10,350 nt of DNA, from assembly GCA_016840425.1 (NCBI GenBank), contig JAEOSI010000061.1, positions 1 through 10,350 of the forward strand, read 5' to 3'. The notes under the pieces are model-generated. The model worked only from the letters and a program-made list of their open reading frames with translations. It was not told the origin of the DNA and made no database searches. Positions 1 through 10,350 of the stretch are shown here, piece by piece. This DNA comes from Candidatus Wukongarchaeum yapensis (lineage in GTDB: Archaea > Asgardarchaeota > Wukongarchaeia > Wukongarchaeales > Wukongarchaeaceae). The translations under genes and the position numbers were made by a program. Within the stretch, counting starts at the first letter, position 1. Every line of letters starts with the position of its first letter.

Positions 1-401
1 GTGGGTAAATCAAAAGTTTTTTCCACGATTATAGAGGTCAGTCCTTTGGGATAACTTATCCTAGCCCTTCGTTTTGACTCGTATATCCTGTAAATATCGC
101 CCATTCTCGCGGGTAACACTTCAAGGAGGAGCCATGATCTTAAAAGGATGACAAAAAGAGAGGAAGTTTTTAGAGGAAAATCATCATCGTTTAAAGGTTT
201 TAAGATCACTAACCACCTTATAGCCCTAAAAAGAAACAGGGTGGAGTGGAGAAGTATGAAAGCTAAAAGCCACCAAGGAGAGATGGAGCGGAGGGAATCC
301 ATTATCTCTGTAGCCCCAACATAATAAATTATCACCCCTAAAACGACTGCTAAAACCAGTAAGCTTACACTTTGATGCTTTGAAGGCTTTTTTATAATCA
401 T
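1..401 (-). CDS. UPF0104 / lysylphosphatidylglycerol-synthase TM-domain (AglD2-type flippase-like) membrane protein, 3'-truncated by window edge
   Basis: Not in ORF track. Hand translation from ATG at 401 is open to the window edge: MIIKKPSKHQSVSLLVLAVVLGVIIYYVGATEIMDSLRSISPWWLLAFILLHSTLFLFRAIRWLVILKPL...VLPARMGDIYRIYESKRRARISYPKGLTSIIVEKTFDLP. The R-x-x-RW, P-x-R-x-GD-x-x-R and EK-x-x-D motifs plus hydrophobic helices match UPF0104. The start overlaps the upstream GT2 stop (ATGA, 398-401). Confidence 0.85.
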   Translation of the reverse strand, partial: MIIKKPSKHQSVSLLVLAVVLGVIIYYVGATEIMDSLRSISPWWLLAFILLHSTLFLFRAIRWLVILKPLNDDDFPLKTSSLFVILLRSWLLLEVLPARMGDIYRIYESKRRARISYPKGLTSIIVEKTFDLP

Positions 402-1090
402 ATTTTTTTCCTCAAAAGTTGTAGTATTTTGTGTAGGTATGTGAAGTAGTAGATTGGCCTATTTTTCGAGCCACCAAGTTTGCGCCAAGTGTAGACAAAA
501 GGCACTTCTTTTATACAGAACCCCATTCTTTCCGCTTTGTATAACAGTTCTATATCGTACTCACCGCCCCTAGAGTATACCTCTATCTTATCTATTACCG
601 TTTTTTTGATAGCTTTAAAACCACCCGTGTTATCTCTAACTTTGTTCCTTAAAAGGAGATTTGCCGCTAAGTTTATCGTATAGCTGGCAAAAGCATGGAG
701 GGGTGGTGCGATCATCCCCCCTCCCTTAATGTGGCGTGAAGCCACTACAATGTCATAATAATCTATATTCTCTAAAAGTTTTGGTATTAATGATGGAGGA
801 TGGGCAAAATCTGCGTCCATGGTAACAATAATAGGTTTTTTCGCTTCACGCATACCCCTCACCGTCGCACTACCCACGCCCAAAGGCTTATCTCTCAAAA
901 TAACGCGAATATTATCGTACTTTTCATTCAAGTTTTCTAAAAGGTCTGCCGTACCATCAGGAGAATTATCATCAACTACCACGATCTCCCCATCATACCC
1001 TTCCCTCAAAAAAATCCGCTCTAAAACAGGGATCAACTTCATCATATTCTCCCTCTCATTATAGGTAGGAATAACTACAGAAACACCCAA
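398..1090 (-). CDS. GT2 polyprenol/dolichol-phosphate mannose synthase-like glycosyltransferase (DPM1-like)
   Basis: Motifs SVVIPTYNE, EIVVVDDNSPDGT, R-x-x-x-LG-x-GSA, MDADFAHPP, SRHIKGG, RDNTGGFKA, EVPFVY-x-x-R-x-x-GGSK. Preferred start is TTG at 1090 (GGTG 5 nt upstream; 230 aa, typical DPM1-like length). The ORF stays open to ATG 1192, so the start is uncertain. Confidence 0.9.
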   Translation of the reverse strand: MGVSVVIPTYNERENMMKLIPVLERIFLREGYDGEIVVVDDNSPDGTADLLENLNEKYDNIRVILRDKPLGVGSATVRGMREAKKPIIVTMDADFAHPPSLIPKLLENIDYYDIVVASRHIKGGGMIAPPLHAFASYTINLAANLLLRNKVRDNTGGFKAIKKTVIDKIEVYSRGGEYDIELLYKAERMGFCIKEVPFVYTWRKLGGSKNRPIYYFTYLHKILQLLRKKI

Positions 1091-1242
1091 AACACCACCA
1101 CTATCTTTGTCTCCATCACCTCCATTATTAATAGTAGGGGAAAACTCAAGCAACAACCAAAAGCAACTCCAAAGATCAAAAGTTGTAATCATGAGGGTTA
1201 AACGTTGTAACAGAAAAATATTTTATTTAATAATATCCCCCT

Positions 1243-1276
1243 CTTTTAAGCCTAACGTTAAAAATCTACTTAAAAG
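1243..1276. promoter_or_regulatory. Candidate bidirectional archaeal promoter: two back-to-back TATA-like boxes
   Basis: CTTTTAAG (1243-1250) and CTTAAAAG (1269-1276) are exact reverse complements, 18 bp apart. Each reads CTTAAAAG (YTTAWA) toward one of the divergent genes. Confidence 0.45.
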
Positions 1277-1316
1277 CGATCAAAATAAAACTACAAAACA
1301 GCTAGAAGGTACTTTT

Positions 1317-2573
1317 ATGGGGCTAACAGCTTACCTTGACAAGAAGATAAACATGTTAAAAAACATGCCAAGGGAGAAGCTGTTTATTTATTTGACATTT
1401 TTCGGTATTATCCTACGGTTTCTTCTACCTTACGTTTTCGCCTTTGCAGACTTTAACCAAACAGATCCAAAAAACTGGGAGATTGCAGGGGAATTAGTGC
1501 TAGACGGTGAAAACCCGTATGTAATTAGTGAAAAAGAAAGAACTCACATGAAATATCTTATGCCTGCTCTTCTTTATCTATTCTCAGCAGTTTTAGTTCT
1601 TATTGAGAGGGGGACAGGGTTTCCTTTCATCTTTAGTTTCTTCACAATATTATTAGTGAGCGATATACTCACCCTTTTAACACTTAAACGCTTATTACAA
1701 TTATTTGAAAAAAATATCTTTCTTGCCCATGCTTATTTCCTAAACCCTTTAACCCTCCTTGCTTTTTGGTATTTACAAGTCGACTTAATAGTAGCGCTAA
1801 CAATAGCAGCTTTTATCTACTATTTTAAAAAAGCACAGATGGAAAAGGCGGCTTTGGCTATAAGCGTGGGGGCGGCGCTAAAGGTATTTCCCGCTCTTTT
1901 TGCCTTGATATTTCTTATAAGAAAAAACGCTTTATCAGAAAAAGTAAAACTGCTTTTACTTACGATAAGTGTACCCGTATTATCTACTTTGCCTTACTTT
2001 TTACAAACTCCTGGAACCGTGATTAATGAACTGTTTTTTTCATATACGCGGGACATATATTATAATAGGATCAGTTTACTAAATGCTTTAATCATTTTTA
2101 AAAGCCCTGGAAGCAGTCAGGAAAGAGCTCCCGAAGGAATTTTAGAGATATTTGACTATATTCTCTCTCCCTTAATGTATGGCTTAATTATCGTAACATT
2201 TTACCTAGCAAGAAAAAGATCGGTAGAACAGCAGGTAACTCTTGCCATACTTTGGATCTATTTACTGTTCAGGGATCTAGAGCTTCATCACCTTGTTTAC
2301 ATTGTTCCTAGTTTGGTTTTGGTCTACGCTTTCTTAGAAAACGAAAAAATCAAGGAAAAAGTTAAACTTTTATTTATTCTATTAGCTATTCTCGGCTACG
2401 CAAGCTACTTCGTACATTATAAACTATACAGACCAGAAAGAATCTCACAAGAAGAAATATTCGCTTTCCTAATACTCATAACATGGATTACTAACATAAC
2501 CTTACTAACAACAATTTACTCTACACCTGTTGAGAAACAATACGCTATAAAAAATGCGGAAGTAAAAAGGTAA
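1317..2573 (+). CDS. GT-C fold membrane glycosyltransferase, GT87/PIG-M-like (lipid-phosphate-sugar dependent)
   Basis: Many hydrophobic helices. TM1 Arg (IILRF), loop Asp (QTDP), GENPY, Y-x-x-P, SDIL, YFLNPL, QVD, GAALKVFP. Start placed at ATG 1317 (GAAGGT 6 nt upstream). The ORF-track extension from 1107 is hydrophilic and runs through the divergent promoter. Confidence 0.8.
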   Translation: MGLTAYLDKKINMLKNMPREKLFIYLTFFGIILRFLLPYVFAFADFNQTDPKNWEIAGELVLDGENPYVISEKERTHMKYLMPALLYLFSAVLVLIERGTGFPFIFSFFTILLVSDILTLLTLKRLLQLFEKNIFLAHAYFLNPLTLLAFWYLQVDLIVALTIAAFIYYFKKAQMEKAALAISVGAALKVFPALFALIFLIRKNALSEKVKLLLLTISVPVLSTLPYFLQTPGTVINELFFSYTRDIYYNRISLLNALIIFKSPGSSQERAPEGILEIFDYILSPLMYGLIIVTFYLARKRSVEQQVTLAILWIYLLFRDLELHHLVYIVPSLVLVYAFLENEKIKEKVKLLFILLAILGYASYFVHYKLYRPERISQEEIFAFLILITWITNITLLTTIYSTPVEKQYAIKNAEVKR

Positions 2574-2579
2574 AAACGC

Positions 2580-3797
2580 TTGTTTACGGTGAGTGGTAAT
2601 ACGGCTAAAAATCAGGGATTTAAGGCAAATTATGGTGATTTTCTTAGAGACTATAGACTAATTATGATCATTTTCTTAGGGATTTTATTAAGAATAATTT
2701 TACTGTTTTATGGTGCAGATTATAAGGGCGATGCTGAGATTTATTCCCGGCGTGGAAGGGATGTTTTAGAAGGTTTTACGCCGTATAAAGATTATGTTGA
2801 GACCAAACCCCCTCTTTGGATAGCTTCTGTCGTGGCTTGGTTTTATATTACAACATTTAAGTCATTTACTTCTGTTAAAATTTTGATCGTTATAGCCGAT
2901 ATCTCTTTTTTAATCGGGGCATTACACCTTCTCAATAAAAGGAAAAGCAAGGAAAAGTATAACTATCTTACTTTCTCGATTATGATAGCTTTAAATCCCC
3001 TGATAATTGCTAATAGTGCGTATTTCGGTCGATATGATATAATACCTGCAACTTTTGCGTTTTTAGCGTTTTTCTTTTTCAGATATAAAAAAGAGAAGTT
3101 AAGCGCTTTGATGCTTGGAATAGCCACAATGTACAAATACCTTGCAGCGGCCTTTCTAATACCTCTAATTATTGCACTAAAAACAAATTTTAAAAGAATA
3201 GAATATCTTCTAATTTTTTCTTCTATATGCGTTTTAATACTTATTCCCGTGTATTTTATAGCATCTATAGACCGATTTATAGAAGATACTGTTTACTATT
3301 TTAGTGAAAGGAGTGCGAGAGGGCTATGTTTATGGAAATTAGCCTCACGATTAGAAATTATTGATACAAGTACAAGCAATATACCGTTCATAATTCAAGG
3401 TATTTCCCTTGTAATAATAACCATCTTCATGATCTCAAAAAGAAACGTCTTTAATGATGATGAAGCTTGGAAAGAATTCTTCATAATAGTGTTTTATGTA
3501 ACATATCTGCTCTCAAACAAGATAGTTTTACTGCAATACTTCATTTTTTACCTCCCTTTTCTGGCTTTAATTACTTCAAGAAACGAGATAAACTTCGAAA
3601 CAAAGCAAATCGTTTACTTGTTAAATTTTATAATATTCTTATCGCTAATCCTAAAAAACGAATATATAGACAATACACTTTTCCTAATCCTAGGAATGAT
3701 AATAGTATACGCGGGAACAATTATCCCTCTTATACTAATATATAAACTTCTAATCAAAACAAAATTTTATCAAACAGAAAAAGCTGGTAATGTATAA
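2580..3797 (+). CDS. GT-C fold membrane glycosyltransferase, GT87/PIG-M-like
   Basis: LLRII, GDAEIY, GFTPYKD...KPPL, IAD, ALNPL, GRYD, GIATMYK, and a C-terminal NKIVLLQYFIFYLP resembling the PIG-M K-x-x-x-x-QYF-x-W motif. Starts 6 nt after the upstream stop (TTG 2580; GTG 2589 is an alternative). Confidence 0.8.
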   Translation: MFTVSGNTAKNQGFKANYGDFLRDYRLIMIIFLGILLRIILLFYGADYKGDAEIYSRRGRDVLEGFTPYKDYVETKPPLWIASVVAWFYITTFKSFTSVKILIVIADISFLIGALHLLNKRKSKEKYNYLTFSIMIALNPLIIANSAYFGRYDIIPATFAFLAFFFFRYKKEKLSALMLGIATMYKYLAAAFLIPLIIALKTNFKRIEYLLIFSSICVLILIPVYFIASIDRFIEDTVYYFSERSARGLCLWKLASRLEIIDTSTSNIPFIIQGISLVIITIFMISKRNVFNDDEAWKEFFIIVFYVTYLLSNKIVLLQYFIFYLPFLALITSRNEINFETKQIVYLLNFIIFLSLILKNEYIDNTLFLILGMIIVYAGTIIPLILIYKLLIKTKFYQTEKAGNV

Positions 3798-3800
3798 AGT

Positions 3801-4790
3801 TCACAATTCTTCATTATCTCCATTATATAGATAACTTAATTCCCAAGGCCATTGCCTATTGTTGGACATGAACCAATCAACGGTTTTTTTAAGACCTTCT
3901 TGGAGGGATGTTTTTGGCATCCATGCCAAAATTTCTTTGGCTTTTTTGTTGCTTGCCACTAATTTTTCGACATCATGAGGTCTAAGCTTGCGGGGATCTA
4001 ATTCAACTTCATATTCTTCGATGTTCATTATTTTAGCGATTAACTCTAACAACTCTTTGATTGAAACGTCTTTTTCTGTGCCTATGTTTATGGTCTCCCC
4101 GATGGCGTTTTTAGCTTTGCCTGCTAAAAGGAGAGCGTTAACAGTATCTGACACAAATGTAAGATCTCTTGAAGTGCTCAAGTTGCCAAGTTTTAAGCGG
4201 TTCCCCTTCGCAAACTGGGATATGATTGTGGGTACAATATAAGGATGAGTTTCTTTTGGCCCGTATGTGTTAAAGGGACGGACTATCACTATGGGTAAAT
4301 TTTGTTCCTTAAAAATTGTATAACAAAGTCTGTCTGCTGCGAGCTTGCTTACAGCGTAAGTTGAATGGGGGAAAGTTGGATGTTTCTCATCCATAGGGAC
4401 ATATTGAGCTGTACCGTAAACTTCAGAGGAGGATACATTAACAAATATTTCAGGATCATAATCCCTCGCAGCTAAAAGTAAGTTTAAAGTCCCTACAGCG
4501 TTGATTTCAAAAAACTCTTTTGGTCTTAAATAACAGCTCGGTATGAAGGGTCTAGCAGCAAGGTGAAAAATCACTTCTTGATCATGAACAACTTTCCGCA
4601 CGAAATCTTCATCACGAATATCCCCATACATAACTATTGCCCTTAGACCCCGTAAGTTTTCTCGAAGACCCGAGGAAAAATCGTCTAAAACCGTTACTTC
4701 TGCACGATTTTGTACAAGTTGTTTAACCAGTTCAGAACCAATGAAACCGGCGCCTCCAGTAACAAGGCACCGCATATCCTCATACAACAT
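3801..4790 (-). CDS. NAD-dependent epimerase/dehydratase (extended SDR), LegB-like NDP-sugar 4,6-dehydratase subfamily
   Basis: TGGAGFIGS Rossmann motif, FHLAA, SSSEVYGTAQYVPMDEKHP, YAVSK (YxxxK), RPFNTYGP, LGNLSTSRDLTFVSDTV. AAGGTGA SD lies 3 nt upstream of ATG 4790. Confidence 0.9.
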   Translation of the reverse strand: MLYEDMRCLVTGGAGFIGSELVKQLVQNRAEVTVLDDFSSGLRENLRGLRAIVMYGDIRDEDFVRKVVHDQEVIFHLAARPFIPSCYLRPKEFFEINAVGTLNLLLAARDYDPEIFVNVSSSEVYGTAQYVPMDEKHPTFPHSTYAVSKLAADRLCYTIFKEQNLPIVIVRPFNTYGPKETHPYIVPTIISQFAKGNRLKLGNLSTSRDLTFVSDTVNALLLAGKAKNAIGETINIGTEKDVSIKELLELIAKIMNIEEYEVELDPRKLRPHDVEKLVASNKKAKEILAWMPKTSLQEGLKKTVDWFMSNNRQWPWELSYLYNGDNEEL

Positions 4791-4813
4791 CGTTCACCTT
4801 TAGGCTAAAACCT

Positions 4814-4875
4814 CTTAAAAAACAGACGAATTACTTAAAAAAGAACAGTTTACATATCTATTTTATAAATATAAA
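4814..4875 (-). promoter_or_regulatory. Candidate internal promoter region for the SDR gene
   Basis: On the minus strand: TTTATATTTATAAAA (4875-4861) and two TTTTTTAAG copies (4842-4834, 4822-4814) upstream of the SD. Which box is used cannot be determined from sequence. Confidence 0.4.
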
Positions 4876-4883
4876 TTAATCGG

Positions 4884-4898
4884 AAAAAAACCAAAAAA
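4884..4898 (-). terminator. Archaeal-type oligo-T terminator after the four-gene minus-strand unit
   Basis: T6-GG-T7 on the minus strand starting 7 nt after the TAG at 4906. Confidence 0.5.
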
Positions 4899-4905
4899 CG
4901 AATTT

Positions 4906-6135
4906 CTATTTAGCTGCTATTTTTTCAGGGATTAAATGAGCTCTTAACTTTAAATAAAATTCTTTCAGATCAGTAAAGAAGAATCCTATGAGAGCTGGGA
5001 GAAAAATTAGGCCCGTTACAGGTTTCAACCACCTAATCAGGGTTCCAGCCCACAAAAGAAAACAGAAAACAAGAACCCAATAAGCTCTCTCCCTAATTTT
5101 ATCAGGTTTCATGATTATATAGATAGTCATAAATGGAAGAATCCAGATTAAATATTGGGGATTTACGAATTTCATAGTAGCGATTAATCCAGTTAAAATA
5201 AAGAAAAAACCTACATAAACTTCTTTTTTATCATCATTCTTTTTATAATATCTCAGCGTGAAATATAAAAGGATAGGAATTGCGAAAAAAAGCCATATAT
5301 CGTCCACATATCTACCATACTTATCGAAGGTGTTTGTAATATAGAGTAAGAAAAAGTATGTAGATGTTTTATTTGTTTCATTTAAATAATCAGTTCTTGA
5401 ACCGTGATATTTAAGCGGTTCTAGTATGAAAGACGTAGATCCTATATAGGCAATAAACGCGGTATAAATCAATACTATTAGTGAAAAGAATCCTAAAAGG
5501 AACTTTGCTTTCTCTGAAAGTCGTTTAAACTTAAAAATTAAGATTATGCCTATGGCAGGTATCATTTTTACTAAAGCACCGATACCAAGTGTTAATCCAC
5601 TCGTATACGGTCGACCTTTTATAGCAAAGTATAATCCTGCTAGTAAAGATGCGGCTACTATGGAGTCAAAATGTCCCTGATAGGAGCTTTCAAAGATCAT
5701 GTAGGGATTAAGAGCGAGAATAATTGATACGATCTTTGACTTAACTTCACCTAAATCAATTGCCATACAGATTTGATAAGCGAGATATACACATAAGATA
5801 TCTCCTAAAACCATCCAAGATTTCATCGATAAATTATAGAAAATTGAGTTTACTGATAATCCGAAGATTTTGTTTATCGAGTAGATAAATGTGACTACGA
5901 TCAAATATCCTGGTGTAATATCGTTGTGTTCGTAAACTACATAGTCAACGTAAGGCTTTTTACCTCTATAGAATTGGCTAGCATCTTGGGCATACCACCA
6001 CCAATCATAACTAGCACCTTCCAAAAACATAAAAGGAAGTCTAGCCAAGAAAGCAAGGAGAAGAATCCTTCTAATATTATATCCCATTAACTTCTGTCGA
6101 AGTTCTACCCATGAAAAATTATTTATAAAAGACAT
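4906..6135 (-). CDS. GT-C fold membrane glycosyltransferase, GT87/PIG-M-like
   Basis: LARLP, SYDWWWY, GKKPYVD...TPG, LGDIL, ALNPY, QGHFD, GIGALVKMIP, KFVNPQYLIWILPF. GAGGCGG SD-like motif upstream of ATG 6135. Confidence 0.8.
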   Translation of the reverse strand: MSFINNFSWVELRQKLMGYNIRRILLLAFLARLPFMFLEGASYDWWWYAQDASQFYRGKKPYVDYVVYEHNDITPGYLIVVTFIYSINKIFGLSVNSIFYNLSMKSWMVLGDILCVYLAYQICMAIDLGEVKSKIVSIILALNPYMIFESSYQGHFDSIVAASLLAGLYFAIKGRPYTSGLTLGIGALVKMIPAIGIILIFKFKRLSEKAKFLLGFFSLIVLIYTAFIAYIGSTSFILEPLKYHGSRTDYLNETNKTSTYFFLLYITNTFDKYGRYVDDIWLFFAIPILLYFTLRYYKKNDDKKEVYVGFFFILTGLIATMKFVNPQYLIWILPFMTIYIIMKPDKIRERAYWVLVFCFLLWAGTLIRWLKPVTGLIFLPALIGFFFTDLKEFYLKLRAHLIPEKIAAK

Positions 6136-6158
6136 ATAAACGCCGCCTCATAGAGAAG

Positions 6159-7196
6159 CTATCCATGTAATAAAGAAACGATCCAAATCCCGTAAGGGAC
6201 GAGTAAGCCCATTAATACTAATGTTTTCTCCCTATCCAAATATTTATGGAAAGGCATTAAATACGGAAAAAGAAATATAGACCACCGCCTTATACCACCA
6301 TCTACAGCATAATAAGCTGGACTTAGAGCCCAATATATGAGAAAAAACAGTTCAAATATGAGGAGGGAAACATCGAACTTCTGGAGTTTCCATACTGTTG
6401 CAAACCCAATTAATAAGAAAGAAAGATTGACGACTACTTGAAACTCGATACCTTCCGTAAGAGATTCAATGAACCCTAGGAAAGGATAAGTGTAAGAGCC
6501 CCCCGCCCTCTCATAATATGCTTGATTATTATGAAACCATGCTAGAAAATCTCCTGAAGTCCAGTAGAAAAAGATGAAGCTTATTATTGTCCCGATAGGG
6601 GTGAGAAGAGATTTTAGGGCGATTTTGTAATCAAATGTTTCGTGTATAATGTGATAAAGGGGTATAAAGATGAACATGAAGCAGTTATAGGGATGGAAAA
6701 ATCCGCCGATTATAGCAGAAATTACCGCCTTGTTTGTGTCGCCTACGCGTAGGAAATAATAAACTAATAAGGCTAAGAATAAGCTGATATGAGCTCCAAA
6801 ATAATAAAGTTTTGCCGGAGGAAAGATAGCGAACAGTATAGCTATGTTTTCCCTATTTTGAAAGTCATGAAGATATAGAATTCTGCGAAAAACTATGGTG
6901 CATAAAGGTCTAATAGTGATATAAAAAAACCAAAGTGAAAAAGTTTCTCCGATAAAAAACGCTAAAGAATAGAGGCAGAAATCAGAACCTGGAAAGGATG
7001 AATAAGCACTATCAGGCTTATTAACATCAGCTTCTTTGTATCTTTCAACGAAATAATACTCCCCAAAATAGTTCGTGTTTATTCCACTCTGTCCTAAAAG
7101 ACCAGCTATAGGATCAAGAATCATTCTCAGCAGAGATAAACCGATAGTTACTTTTACGGGCCAATTATCCCAGTCATCCCTAGTTAAACCAAACAC
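6159..7196 (-). CDS. GT-C fold membrane protein, PIG-V / Mannosyl_trans2-like, with degenerate motifs
   Basis: AYSSFPG (cf. AFFP), LFAIFP...ISLFLAL (cf. FP...ESLFL-x-L), LLTPIG, GDFLAWFHNNQAYYER (cf. GD-x-L-x-F-x-x-x-Q-x-x-W-x-R), IRRWSIFLFP. GTG start with GGTGAT SD 5 nt upstream, overlapping the upstream stop codon. Confidence 0.65.
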   Translation of the reverse strand: MFGLTRDDWDNWPVKVTIGLSLLRMILDPIAGLLGQSGINTNYFGEYYFVERYKEADVNKPDSAYSSFPGSDFCLYSLAFFIGETFSLWFFYITIRPLCTIVFRRILYLHDFQNRENIAILFAIFPPAKLYYFGAHISLFLALLVYYFLRVGDTNKAVISAIIGGFFHPYNCFMFIFIPLYHIIHETFDYKIALKSLLTPIGTIISFIFFYWTSGDFLAWFHNNQAYYERAGGSYTYPFLGFIESLTEGIEFQVVVNLSFLLIGFATVWKLQKFDVSLLIFELFFLIYWALSPAYYAVDGGIRRWSIFLFPYLMPFHKYLDREKTLVLMGLLVPYGIWIVSLLHG

Positions 7197-7201
7197 TTTT
7201 T

Positions 7202-7207
7202 ATCACC
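7202..7207 (-). promoter_or_regulatory. Shine-Dalgarno GGTGAT embedded in the GT2 stop codon (translational coupling)
   Basis: Minus strand reads CGG TGA TAAAAA GTG: the TGA stop of 7203-7913 is part of the SD of the next gene. Confidence 0.6.
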
Positions 7208-7913
7208 GTATACGCAGAAGAATCCATAGAACGATTAAATCGTGAAAACCTTGAAATAAACGCTTAAAACCGTATTTCGATTGCCCACGTTCTCTTGCAT
7301 AGTGTTTTATAACCACTTCGCCTATCTTATAACCCTTTTGAGCGATCAATGCTATGAGGAACCTGTGCTGGTTTCTGCTAAGATAGATATTTTTAATTGC
7401 CTCTTTTTTGAACGCTTTAAGCCCGCAATTCCAGTCATGAAGTTTTATTCCAAAAAACATGCTGGTTAACAAGTTAAAAATTTTTGAAGGTATGATTTTT
7501 GTTGGCGGATCAATTCTTTTTTTTCGCCAACCGTTCACTGCGTCAACGTATCCTGCTTTTAGCGGTTTTAAGAGCATTGGAATATCCATTGGTTCATACT
7601 GCATATCTGCATCGATGAAGGCCGCATACTTTCCTTTAGCCACTTTAAAACCCGTGTTTAAAGCAGCAGACTTTCCTAGATTTTTTGGGTGGTACTTCAC
7701 TTTTAATTTATCATTTTCCTTCACAAGTTGATCAGCAATACCTCCAGATCCGTCACTTGATCCATCATCGACCATTATAACCTCGTAATTGGATGAAACT
7801 TTCTGCAAAGCTTTTTCAACCCTCTTAATAACATATTTGAGGGTGCCTGCTTCATTGAAAAAAGGGACTATTACACTAACATCTACTTTTTGTGAATTCA
7901 AAAAAATAACCAC
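7203..7913 (-). CDS. GT2 polyprenol/dolichol-phosphate sugar synthase, ArnC/AglJ-like subfamily, no C-terminal TM helices
   Basis: SVIVPFFNE, EVIMVDDGSSDGS, NLGKSAAL, IDADMQYEPMDIP, GWRKKRIDP, SKIFN, LHDWNCGLKA, HRF, RERGQSKYG. GTG start at 7913; TTG at 7901 with GGGTGGT upstream is an alternative. Confidence 0.88.
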   Translation of the reverse strand: MVIFLNSQKVDVSVIVPFFNEAGTLKYVIKRVEKALQKVSSNYEVIMVDDGSSDGSGGIADQLVKENDKLKVKYHPKNLGKSAALNTGFKVAKGKYAAFIDADMQYEPMDIPMLLKPLKAGYVDAVNGWRKKRIDPPTKIIPSKIFNLLTSMFFGIKLHDWNCGLKAFKKEAIKNIYLSRNQHRFLIALIAQKGYKIGEVVIKHYARERGQSKYGFKRLFQGFHDLIVLWILLRIR

Positions 7914-7922
7914 CCAAGTCGA

Positions 7923-9095
7923 TCAAGTCATGTTTTTCTTAATTGTTGAAGTTTTCCATGTAAATATGACTAGATGAAGAATGATTACTGTAACTATTAT
8001 CCATGCCACTATTCCGCTCGTTAAGTAAAGAATTTCTCCACTGTGACTACTTGATTTAGCGATATCGATAAAAGTTAATGCTGGAGGAAAAATTACGTAT
8101 AATTCTACTAGAAGGTTCTTGTCATTCAAAGCGAATGGTGCCGCATAAACTAAAGCGAACAGATAATAAGAACTATGAACTTTTGTGAAAGCTAATAAAA
8201 AGATCGAAATAATTAATAACGCTGCTGACCACGGTCCTATCTTCCTTGTAATAACAAGATAGCATATACCAAGATAAGATATTATGAATAATGCGGTGAA
8301 AGGTGCTAATGGTATATCATAACCATGAGCAACTAGCAAATATAAAATTCCAACACCTTCAATGGATGTGAGCCTACCAGTCATTACTGTTGCATCTGAA
8401 CCCGCCAAAATAAAAAACGGTAAAACTCCTGCTAAAACAACGGATGCGGTTATTCCCAGCCTTCCAACTCTTTCTTTATTTGTACCTTTTGCGAATATTA
8501 GAAGTGGTAATAAAAGGCCTATAGTTGGCCTGATAAGCCCTCCTAAACCAAGTATTAATGCTGCTTTCTTATACTCTTTTTGTAACATCAAATATGTGAA
8601 TAAAAGAAAGAACACAACAAGGATAGACTCATCTTGACCCCTTAAAGTTGAACTTGCAATAACAAAAGGGTTAAAAGCATAGAAAATAGCGCAACGTTTT
8701 GCGAAAAGTTCTCCTTTAAAAACTCCAATACCCCTAAGAAAGACCCTGTATAATAAAATTGCTGCTATTATATCAAAAAATGAAAAATAGAGTTCAAATG
8801 CCGCAATGTGTCCATCTGCAAAAATCGCAGGAGGCAACAAAATATAACTCGCAAGGGGCGGCGTTCTAACAGGATGAGAAGTATCCCGATATATAACACC
8901 GCCACTAAGTATTACATCCGACCTATCTATCCACAAATCATAATCTGGACAATGATATTCACTGGGCACATCACTATTGTATAACCCATCATATATAATG
9001 AATGGTAAGCGCACTAATAAAGCGAAAAAAGCGATACGAAACTCAAATTGAGACCAAAACTTGGATTCACCAGATACTCCAGTTTTATGATCCAT
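7923..9095 (-). CDS. GT-C fold membrane glycosyltransferase, GT87/PIG-M-like
   Basis: LVRLP, PDYD (DxD in the first loop, as in PIG-M), GGVIYRD...TPPL, FFDI, YAFNPF, RGQDE, GLGGLIRP, TKVHSSYY. GGAGCGA SD-like motif upstream of ATG 9095. Confidence 0.78.
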   Translation of the reverse strand: MDHKTGVSGESKFWSQFEFRIAFFALLVRLPFIIYDGLYNSDVPSEYHCPDYDLWIDRSDVILSGGVIYRDTSHPVRTPPLASYILLPPAIFADGHIAAFELYFSFFDIIAAILLYRVFLRGIGVFKGELFAKRCAIFYAFNPFVIASSTLRGQDESILVVFFLLFTYLMLQKEYKKAALILGLGGLIRPTIGLLLPLLIFAKGTNKERVGRLGITASVVLAGVLPFFILAGSDATVMTGRLTSIEGVGILYLLVAHGYDIPLAPFTALFIISYLGICYLVITRKIGPWSAALLIISIFLLAFTKVHSSYYLFALVYAAPFALNDKNLLVELYVIFPPALTFIDIAKSSSHSGEILYLTSGIVAWIIVTVIILHLVIFTWKTSTIKKNMT

Positions 9096-9295
9096 CTAGA
9101 TCGCTCCGAATATATAACAAAAATTCTTTTGCGATCTCATATTTAAAAGAGTATGATCACCATGAGAAAACTTTAATTTTAAAAAGATCTTATCGGAAAA
9201 AATAATTGAAAGCTTCATATTCTACTAATTACTAAGCTAAATCGGTGTTTAAAGATTAAATCGAAAAAAGAAAGTCTACTAGACAGGCGAGGCTA
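9096..9295. promoter_or_regulatory. Divergent intergenic control region (two promoters expected)
   Basis: 200-bp AT-rich gap between divergent starts. TATA-like TTTAAAG at 9248-9254 (+) and TTTTAAA at 9148-9142 and 9184-9178 (-). Confidence 0.45.
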
Positions 9296-10350
9296 ATGAA
9301 AAGAGAACACGTTATTCTTGCACTAATACTTATTTCAGCTTTTGCACTAAGACTTTATGGCGTACTTGTTGACGTTCAACGTTTTTTCCGTGAACCCACT
9401 TATGGCATGGCAGCATGGAGAATAGTTGAAGGAGATATCCCTTACCGTGATTTCTATCACGCACAACCTCCCCTCTCCCCCTATTTACTCGCTTTTGTTT
9501 TCTTTCTATTTGGAGTAGGAGTTGTCCAAGCGAGGTTATTCATGGTTTTTTTCACAACTTTTACATGTTTCATGATCTATTTAAACGGGAAAAGAATCGA
9601 TATCAAAACCGGATTACTTGGAAGCTTAATCTATGCAATTGCTCCTTTATCTATTTTATATGGTATGATGGCAGTAAACGACTTCATAGCCATAACTTTC
9701 GTTATAATAGGATATTACTTCCTAACACCAATCATTACGGAAAAAAAGAACGAAACAAGCAATAACACTACTAAAAGGAACTACTTATTTTTAGCTGGAT
9801 TTTTTGCAAGCTTAGGAGTAATGGTAAAAACAATAGTAGCACCAGTATTCATAGCTTTTATCGTCATTATAATCATTGAAGGAAAACTTGCCAAAGCTGA
9901 AATGAAAGAACAACTAGAAAACACGTTATACCTCTTTATTGGGTTCGTTATTCCTATTTTACTTGTATTTTCACTTTTTTACTTAATAGCCGGAGAAGAA
10001 TTTACAGATCAAGTATTAGAACAGCACTTCGAAAAAGGCTCAGTTCCATGGGAGGAACGATGGAGCAAACCCGTTAACTACTTGATCCGAGATAATTTCT
10101 ACTTCTTCGTTTTCTTTTTATTTAGCGCTCCATTCGCAGCACGAAACCCATACGGAAGAGGATTGATAATCGCAATTCTTTTTATGATTTTCTCCATACT
10201 TCTTTTTGTTCCAAGACAATACGGCAATTACTACGAATCAACTATCCCCCTAATGGCTATGGTCTGCGGTTTCTTTCCCGTACCAGATATAAAAAAGATA
10301 AAATTCAAACGAAAAAATTTTTTCAACCAAGAAACAGCAAAAATAGTCCT
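9296..10350 (+). CDS. GT-C fold membrane glycosyltransferase, ArnT/PMT_2 (GT83/GT39)-like, 3'-truncated by window edge
   Basis: Not in ORF track. Hand translation from ATG 9296 is open to the window end (351 codons): MKREHVILALILISAFALRLYGVLVDVQRFFREPTYGMAAWRIVEGDIPYRDFYHAQPPLSPYLLAFVFFLFGVGVVQARLFM...IYAIAPLSILYGMMAVND...LAGFFASLGVMVK...YGNYYESTIPL. The G-x-x-PY-x-DF-x-x-x-x-PPL...LFG...AR pattern is typical of this family. Confidence 0.82.
   Translation, partial: MKREHVILALILISAFALRLYGVLVDVQRFFREPTYGMAAWRIVEGDIPYRDFYHAQPPLSPYLLAFVFFLFGVGVVQARLFMVFFTTFTCFMIYLNGKRIDIKTGLLGSLIYAIAPLSILYGMMAVNDFIAITFVIIGYYFLTPIITEKKNETSNNTTKRNYLFLAGFFASLGVMVKTIVAPVFIAFIVIIIIEGKLAKAEMKEQLENTLYLFIGFVIPILLVFSLFYLIAGEEFTDQVLEQHFEKGSVPWEERWSKPVNYLIRDNFYFFVFFLFSAPFAARNPYGRGLIIAILFMIFSILLFVPRQYGNYYESTIPLMAMVCGFFPVPDIKKIKFKRKNFFNQETAKIV

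Follow-up and report, generated by a model that had tools for sequence, protein, structure and literature searches.

A dense cluster of GT-C glycosyltransferase genes with putative lipid-phosphate-sugar synthases in an Asgard archaeal genome

In eukaryotes, lipid-linked oligosaccharides and GPI glycans are completed by a set of GT-C paralogs that work in the lumen of the ER. Among archaea, the characterized N-glycan pathways known to us assemble the glycan in the cytoplasm and take at most one or two steps on the outer face. A phylogenomic study in 2026 assigned an Asgard origin to the eukaryotic lumenal glycosyltransferases and to the GPI pathway (PMC12872458), and we found no description in the literature of the function or gene organization of the Asgard homologs of lumenal GT-C enzymes. 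The contig described here offers a concrete operon-level Asgard case, in which the transferases nearest to ALG3 and PIG-M are accompanied by a candidate translocator and by synthases that probably make their donors. The locus is real and unusually dense, while the enzyme families and the link between Asgard archaea and eukaryotes are already known.

The window, by which we mean the whole stretch of DNA analyzed, is an entire contig (10.35 kb) from an Asgard metagenome-assembled genome (MAG) of 2.2 Mb (92% complete, 3.3% contamination). It contains 10 genes (Table 1), which were confirmed at the positions claimed for them in an initial annotation. The spacing is that of an operon, with gaps of 6 to 23 nt across g9-g8-g7-g6 and of 6 nt between g3 and g4, and the start of g1 overlaps the stop of g2 by 4 nt. 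The start of g3 was reset from 1107 to 1317 because the orthologs compared (83% identical in L018 and 97% identical in G001) begin at that Met. Pfam and profile searches found no GT4 and no STT3/AglB gene in the window, in agreement with the initial annotation. That annotation also had the cluster running past both edges, which is correct for the left side only. There, a genus mate has a full-length g1 followed by one more GT87-like GT-C gene. An overlap of 144 bases (100% identity) joins the right end to contig C262 and completes g10 (479 aa); unrelated genes follow, the cluster ends with g10, and an AglB/GT4 pathway is absent from this flank.

Table 1. Genes of the window, with positions in nucleotides and family assignments
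Gene	Position	Strand	Assignment and features
g1	3..401	-	LPG_synthase_TM membrane protein (MprF flippase-domain family), N-terminal 133 aa; truncated by contig end
g2	398..1192	-	GT2 polyprenol-phosphate hexose synthase; catalytic domain alone, no TM helix
g3	1317..2573	+	GT87-like GT-C, 418 aa; D50-x3-W54 after TM1
g4	2580..3797	+	PIG-M/GT87-like GT-C, 405 aa; D51-x3-Y55
g5	3801..4790	-	Extended SDR: sugar-nucleotide dehydratase, epimerase, or decarboxylase
g6	4906..6135	-	GT87-like GT-C, 409 aa; D44-x3-Y48
g7	6159..7196	-	Orphan polytopic membrane protein, 345 aa; probable, unproven divergent GT-C
g8	7203..7913	-	GT2 polyprenol-phosphate sugar synthase, ArnC-like, no TM helix
g9	7923..9095	-	PIG-M/ALG3-like GT-C, 390 aa; D51 (DYD) in predicted first outer loop
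g10	9296..10348	+	PMT_2-type GT-C; first 351 of 479 aa in window, remainder on contig C262

Five of the proteins (g3, g4, g6, g9, and g10) are bona fide GT-C glycosyltransferases, each with 8 to 10 hydrophobic segments, and these enzymes fall in the PIG-M/ALG3/PimE branch. The scores of g4 (43.3 bits), g6 (39.2 bits), and g3 (28.3 bits) against PF09594 (GT87) all exceeded the cut-off of 25 bits. As to GT87 membership, g9 by itself gave no PF09594 match, but 21 of the 34 members of its family do have one. The g10 protein matched PF13231 (PMT_2) with 46.2 bits (cut-off, 26.1) and the Agl23 model with an E value of 2.4e-10, which is under that model's cut-off. Orthologs of g6 in two metagenome contigs, L014 and L018, are 68-71% identical to it, and the L018 copy is also labeled MptA_B_family. 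In searches against solved structures, the g9 family profile reached GPI mannosyltransferase I with an E value of 4e-16 and the g4 family profile (A3) did so with E values of 2.6e-19 and 4.9e-14; this enzyme was the only solved sequence relative of either family. The structure model of g9 (pLDDT 89) gave full-length GT-C matches, with 340-368 aligned residues for ALG3, GPI mannosyltransferase I, ALG6, PimE, ArnT, PMT, and STT3 and with the ALG3 match as good as that to GPI mannosyltransferase I, and PimE and PIG-U are among the structural matches too.

A D-x3-[Y/W] motif lies directly after TM1 in g3, g4, g6, and g9, at the start of what is predicted to be the first outer loop. Its spacing is the same as that between the catalytic base D58 of PimE and Y62 (10.1101/2024.09.17.613550), and it falls where PIG-M has its DxD (PMC12653191). 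Every member of the g9 and g4 families has D51, which within the g9 family is the only invariant residue of the loop 1 sequence D51-Y-D53. Alternatively, several of the paralogs might be noncatalytic and serve as scaffolds, as PIG-U, which has SSW in place of DxD (PMC12653191), does in the GPI transamidase. We regard this as very improbable, as the four PIG-M/GT87-like proteins in the window all keep the loop-1 Asp and the aromatic residue following it, and D155 is, like D51, invariant in the g9 family.

The initial annotation counted six GT-C enzymes. Pfam matches, profiles, and the g9 fold bear this out for the five proteins above, but not for the sixth, g7. This protein has no Pfam match, and its only close relatives in 5.8 billion clusters are three, all of them syntenic. 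Its AF2 model has a pLDDT of 36 and no usable fold, and hhalign against the g9 family gave a probability of 8%. Its ESM-Atlas features score 0.97-0.98 to clusters with Mannosyl_trans2, GT87, PMT_2, or DIE2_ALG10. On these language-model features alone, g7 is probably a divergent GT-C, as yet unproven.

Both GT2 genes encode proteins resembling polyprenol-phosphate-sugar synthases, which fits the two Dol-P-sugar synthases of the initial annotation. The g2 protein matched PF00535 with an E value of 1.5e-31, and its best solved relative is the Dol-P-Man synthase of P. furiosus (5mlz; E value, 2.3e-37; residues 24-248 of 374). The g8 protein matched PF00535 (4e-36), the ArnC equivalog model (4e-34, under its cut-off), and the solved structures of ArnC (3.9e-28), GtrB (3e-19), and the P. 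furiosus synthase (7e-19). No hydrophobic segments were found in g2 or g8; without TM helices, both would depend on a partner in the membrane, like DPM1. Judged by its family, g5 modifies sugar nucleotides: it matched GDP_Man_Dehyd/Epimerase with an E value of 6e-66, is LegB-like and dTDP-Glc dehydratase-like, and has Pal (6bwl), UDP-Glc 4-epimerase, and UDP-GlcA decarboxylase as its best solved relatives. All three proteins (g2, g8, and g5) stay under every equivalog cut-off.

The truncated g1 matched PF03706 (E value, 1e-19) and TIGR00374 (above cut-off), and its full-length ortholog in the genus mate (326 aa) matched PF03706 with an E value of 2e-43. We treat g1 as the candidate that would translocate the product of g2 or serve as its membrane partner; no GtrA, ArnE/F, or Wzx-like AglR family member was found in the window. 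Against this, a g2-like GT2 gene adjoins g1 homologs in just 7 of 28 Asgard loci examined. Its earlier description as flippase-like is right as to family, the flippase role being deduced from family membership.

Gene order is kept in the two independent metagenome contigs (67-83% identity) and in the genus mate, with g9-g8-g7-g6 and g3-g4 as the conserved blocks. The examined part of L018 lacks the SDR, and in L014 an IS element and a gene for a UDP-sugar dehydrogenase are present. Among the sequences examined, GT-C arrays this large occur only in this genus and two close metagenomic relatives, whereas single PIG-M/GT87-like genes are present in 156 of 301 sampled Asgard genomes. The locus had been called unusual for an archaeon, a claim to be qualified in view of how common the single genes are; the AglD/AglR/AglS system is a one-step archaeal precedent. 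The breadth of the family also bears on whether this contig is a bacterial contaminant in the MAG, which we consider extremely improbable. The contamination estimate of the MAG leaves room for this, the ESM-Atlas look-alike clusters are mostly bacterial, and there is one Anaerolineae homolog (31% identity). However, an independent MAG of the same genus carries window bases 1-1795 at 91% DNA identity, and g4 and g9 have paralogs on contigs that encode housekeeping proteins of archaeal type (Topo VI A and a ThrRS with the archaeal editing domain).

Cytoplasmic glycosyltransferases are few in the genome, which has 13 GT-C genes versus 5 GT2 and 3 GT4 matches. The 13 include a second five-gene array, with which the GT-C genes exceed the detected GT2 and GT4 genes. 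This array lies amid housekeeping genes and has no synthase of its own; the paralogs therefore need not form one pathway. It is possible, and we advance it only tentatively, that they are independent outer-face transferases with different targets (N-glycans as for AglS, Ser/Thr O-mannosylation as for PMT, or other polymers) in a variable surface-glycan island. The mutual identity of the window paralogs is just 16-28%, g10 is of PMT_2/Agl23 type, the cluster content varies among close relatives (the SDR, IS element, and dehydrogenase above), and the GC content of the contig is 35.5%, versus mostly 37-39% elsewhere. Nevertheless, the tight spacing and conserved blocks argue for joint use, and there are just two donor synthases for five to six transferases.

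We consider it likely that the cluster serves to glycosylate acceptors at the outer surface of the cytoplasmic membrane, with lipid-phosphate sugars as donors. The SDR g5 would tailor a nucleotide sugar in the cytoplasm, and g2 and g8 would charge dolichyl or polyprenyl phosphate, probably yielding two different donors. These would cross the membrane, most plausibly helped by g1, which is translationally coupled to g2. Outside, g3, g4, g6, g9, g10, and probably g7 would each move one sugar onto a growing acceptor, using the conserved Asp that opens the first outer loop and probably forming a different linkage per enzyme. What the analysis establishes is the gene identities, the g9 fold, the catalytic motif, the synteny, and the genome-wide expansion; which sugars the donors carry, whether g1 flips them, what accepts them, and whether the enzymes act in one line are deductions. 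The gene content thus fits the logic of activation, translocation, and transfer outside put forward in the initial annotation; its view of the locus as a complete module that builds a single branched glycan or lipoglycan was an overstatement, as each enzyme may have an acceptor of its own.

As acceptor we would guess an N-glycan, either linked to dolichol or already attached to protein; AglB, with an OST3/OST6 neighbor, and an Alg7-like initiator are encoded in the genome, where cytoplasmic glycosyltransferases are few. Alternatively, the GT-C enzymes could extend a glycan on archaetidylinositol, in a lipoglycan or GPI-like glycolipid line resembling PimE/Mpt (PIM/LM) and PIG-M (GPI). The solved relatives of the g4 and g9 families and the PimE and PIG-U structural matches point this way; the substrates of PIG-M and PimE are inositol lipids and not N-glycans, and an inositol-1-phosphate synthase is encoded in the genome. 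We nonetheless find this unlikely. ALG3, which matches g9 equally well, acts on a dolichol-PP-glycan, and no inositol-lipid gene is in the cluster. PIG-L (PF02585) had no match in the 92%-complete genome, where absence is not proof, and the best scores against the PIG-M model (PF05007) were 19.4, 14, and 13.6 bits (the last being g9), under the cut-off of 23.4. The GT22 and PIG-V Pfam models were also unmatched in the genome, which says little because neither matched any control genome.

A rather doubtful but far-reaching extension of the outer-face reading is that the cluster is a prokaryotic counterpart of eukaryotic lumenal glycan assembly. Synthases of DPM1 type without TM helices would supply a PIG-M/ALG3-type line that assembles, step by step at the outer face, a lipid-linked oligosaccharide or a glycolipid, and this in the archaeal lineage closest to eukaryotes. 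If so, the paralog expansion would record the diversification behind the ALG3, PIG-M, and PIG-U families. The cluster is small enough for synthesis and expression, and the question of an ancestral archaeal multistep outer-face glycan assembly therefore becomes experimentally testable.

The window enzymes are 11-18% identical to GPI mannosyltransferase I (PIG-M/Gpi14, GT50) and ALG3 (GT58), but here there are many paralogs in prokaryotic operon arrays, with no PIG-X/Pbn1-like partner known. Mycobacterial PimE/Mpt (GT87) share PF09594 with g3, g4, and g6, the D-x3-Y dyad equals D58/Y62 of PimE, and with Ppm1 they likewise form a set of several GT-C enzymes fed by one lipid-phosphate-sugar synthase. 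The eukaryotic type II Dol-P-Man synthase (DPM1 with DPM2/DPM3) has a TM-less catalytic domain as do g2 and g8, a likeness of architecture; Ppm1, too, has a catalytic domain dependent on a separate membrane protein. The logic is that of GtrA/GtrB/Gtr(type), ArnC/ArnEF/ArnT, and AglD/AglR/AglS, in which a GT2 loads the lipid phosphate, a small membrane protein aids crossing, and a GT-C transfers the sugar outside; the Haloferax system is the archaeal precedent in a one-step version (PMC3871713). As in these systems, the synthases are encoded with the GT-C enzymes, g8 being ArnC/GtrB-like and g10 Agl23/PMT_2-like. Unlike them, the window has synthases with no TM anchor, a translocator candidate from the MprF-flippase family rather than a GtrA, SMR, or Wzx protein, and, in place of one sugar and one GT-C, five to six GT-C enzymes with two synthases.

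Five of the polytopic membrane proteins encoded in the window, g3, g4, g6, g9, and g10 (genes are numbered from left to right), are confirmed as GT-C enzymes, a class of transferases known to use lipid-phosphate sugars on the outer face of the membrane. The Pfam GT87 model was passed by g4, g6, and g3 and the PMT_2 model by g10; g9 by itself had no Pfam match. An exhaustive HMMER search returned 125 representatives related to g9, and a family profile of 34 sequences, 21 of which match GT87, aligned over almost its full length with the solved GPI mannosyltransferase I (23gx_B; E = 4e-16). The g4-family profile (nine sequences) matched the same structure (E = 2.6e-19) as well as Candida glabrata Gpi14 (9wno_A; E = 4.9e-14), and the latter was also ranked first by Foldseek (TM 0.72) for a confident AF2 model of g9 (pLDDT 89.2, pTM 0.90). 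The kinship of GT87 and PIG-M is long established. Immediately after TM1, a D-x3-[Y/W] motif is found in g9 (D51/W55), g4 (D51/Y55), g6 (D44/Y48), and g3 (D50/W54), with the same spacing as the catalytic base D58 and Y62 of PimE and at a position matching that of the DxD of PIG-M. Taken together, the Pfam, profile, fold, and motif results establish these five proteins as GT-C enzymes, and, judged by sequence, they look catalytically competent. When g4, g7, and g10 were each searched as single sequences against solved structures, nothing useful came up; shallow profiles of g6 and g3 matched no solved structure, and a first scan of the genome contigs with g4 found no relative.

The initial annotation had counted six GT-C enzymes, and the sixth, g7, stands apart in having no Pfam, profile, or fold support. 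It is polytopic and its synteny is conserved, and two word-index homologue searches of 5.8 billion protein clusters returned the same three relatives only, all in the same gene neighborhood at 75 to 99% identity. Across 301 Asgard genomes, only two marginal matches turned up (E of about 1e-3), both in stop-broken frames. No match was obtained against Pfam at E values up to 10, nor by hmmsearch against all genome open reading frames (ORFs) and all retrieved GT-C proteins; hhalign gave a probability of 8% for kinship with the g9 family, and an AF2 model from four sequences reached a pLDDT of 36. Among the 100 nearest ESM-Atlas clusters, however, Mannosyl_trans2 (PIG-V type) dominates, and the others are GT87, PMT_2, DIE2_ALG10, and PMT, all of the GT-C clan (0.95 to 0.98). 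Because no Wzy, O-antigen ligase, or flippase family occurs among these 100 clusters, we rank such an identity below that of a GT-C enzyme, which g7 probably is.

On the donor side, g2 is closest among solved proteins to the Dol-P-Man synthase of Pyrococcus furiosus (E = 2.3e-37), with an alignment confined to the catalytic part (residues 24 to 248 of 374), and g8 is closest to ArnC (E = 3.9e-28), followed by GtrB and PfDPMS. Neither g2 nor g8 has a hydrophobic segment; both would thus be catalytic-only synthases requiring a membrane partner, and they presumably make two different lipid-phosphate sugars. The g1 product belongs to an MprF-type flippase-like family (its 326-aa orthologue matches PF03706, E = 2e-43) with homologues in 99 of the 301 Asgard genomes. 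A g2-like GT2 adjoins a g1 homologue in 7 of 28 loci examined, so the pairing is recurrent, not general. For a complex of g2 and g1, modelled with the orthologues of a same-genus genome (G001; alignments A8 and A9), the prediction gave "no answer" at a score of 0.00. The remaining gene, g5, encodes an extended SDR; its close relatives are dehydratases, epimerases, and decarboxylases of sugar nucleotides, and it has no equivalog assignment. On C199 of the source genome (4407-6207), another TM-less GT2 adjoins an SDR, next to zinc-ribbon membrane proteins; this GT2 is 38% identical to the g8 orthologue on the metagenome contig L014, and the SDR matches g5 (E = 3e-52).

Layout of the ten genes in the window
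Gene	Coordinates	Strand	Arrangement
g1	3-401	minus	downstream of g2, with a 4-nt overlap
g2	398-1192	minus	precedes g1
g3	1317-2573	plus	precedes g4
g4	2580-3797	plus	6 nt after g3
g5	3801-4790	minus	115-nt gap after g6
g6	4906-6135	minus	last of the g9-g8-g7-g6 run
g7	6159-7196	minus	in the g9-g8-g7-g6 run
g8	7203-7913	minus	in the g9-g8-g7-g6 run
g9	7923-9095	minus	first of the g9-g8-g7-g6 run
g10	9296-10348	plus	truncated at contig end

Intergenic spacing within the g9-g8-g7-g6 run is 6 to 23 nt. A longer g3 ORF from TTG 1107 was rejected as an artefact, as orthologues (83% and 97% identity) start at the Met at 1317; with this start, a 124-nt AT-rich divergent region separates g2 and g3. 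Five ORFs of 81 to 92 aa lie inside or antisense to real genes (819-1064, 3467-3745, 3988-4242, 7459-7731, and 8362-8637) and look like by-products of coding frames; the apparent conservation of one of them in L014 is due solely to its overlap with g8. Scanning the window for tRNA genes and Rfam families gave no match.

The array had been thought to run past both edges, which, judged by G001, holds for the left side alone. There, G001 matches window bases 1-1795 at 91% DNA identity and has g1 at full length, with a further GT87-like gene (438 aa) after it. On the right, window positions 10207-10350 are identical (144 bases, 100%, reverse orientation) to C262 3105-3248, so the two contigs join and g10 becomes a complete 479-aa gene; the next two genes on C262 have no glycan signature, and the cluster therefore ends here. 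Two metagenome contigs, L014 (ENA) and L018 (JGI, "SMTZ1"), carry orthologues at 67 to 83% identity. A broken DDE transposase, in two 142-aa pieces, lies within the L014 version of the cluster (6964-7869), which suggests that mobile elements rearrange the locus. The blocks g9-g8-g7, g7-g6, and g4-g3 are retained in these contigs; L014 differs by an IS element, a UDP-sugar dehydrogenase, and a different PMT_2 gene, and the SDR is absent from the retrieved part of L018. Window GC is slightly low (35.5%), which, with the differences in gene content, fits a variable surface-glycan locus. The window is the whole of contig C21 in the source MAG, which comprises 2.16 Mb in 277 contigs (completeness, 92%; contamination, 3.3%). 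Contamination as the origin of these genes is unlikely, because archaeal housekeeping genes, for Topo VI subunit A and for a ThrRS with an archaeal editing domain, occur on the same contigs as their paralogues.

A second array lies outside the window. The ends of C207 (13038-14821) and C40 (4777-9768) both fall within one 405-aa GT-C gene, and the intact G001 orthologue (L010, 3933-5147) shows that the two contigs join through it. The joined array comprises five PIG-M/GT87-like genes, has housekeeping genes on its flanks, and contains no GT2 synthase. Counting the window, this array, C191, C251, and STT3, the genome holds 13 GT-C genes, or 14 with g7, alongside five GT2 and three GT4 matches. 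The g9-family profile matches 156 of the 301 Asgard genomes, mostly with one or two copies; only this genus and three genomes outside it reach six or more. Where homologues were examined elsewhere, they stood alone or formed a pair of a GT2 and a GT-C.

The enzyme families of the cluster are already known. A 2026 phylogenomic study (PMC12872458) states that the GPI pathway and the lumenal monoglycosyltransferases of eukaryotes are Asgard derived, and a 2026 preprint makes that statement for a number of GPI and N-glycan enzymes. In the literature, we found no description of dense arrays in Asgard archaea, of the donor synthases of such arrays, or of any array function, and a paper on a cultured Asgard archaeon and its glycosylation (PMC11284389) makes no mention of glycosyltransferases or GT-C.

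As for the acceptor, the genome encodes an Alg7-like protein and an inositol-1-phosphate synthase, and on C119 an OST3/OST6-family gene (4399-4953) lies directly upstream of, and divergent from, the single STT3/AglB gene (5210-6979), an adjacency resembling the subunit pairing of the eukaryotic oligosaccharyltransferase. PIG-L was not found in the genome, which is 92% complete, and the Pfam PIG-V and GT22 models had no genome match, which carries little weight as neither matched any control genome. Since AglB, OST3/6, and Alg7 are present but cytoplasmic glycosyltransferases are few, our best guess is a dolichol-linked or protein-bound N-glycan. An inositol-lipid glycan is a serious rival, as PIG-M and PimE use such lipids as acceptors, and it is equally possible that the transferases act independently on several separate acceptors. 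Whichever acceptor is used, the gene content fits glycosylation on the outer face from lipid-phosphate sugars. GtrABX, ArnC/EF/T, and Haloferax AglD/AglR/AglS follow the same outer-face logic, which the window cluster would multiply to five or six transferases and two synthases.
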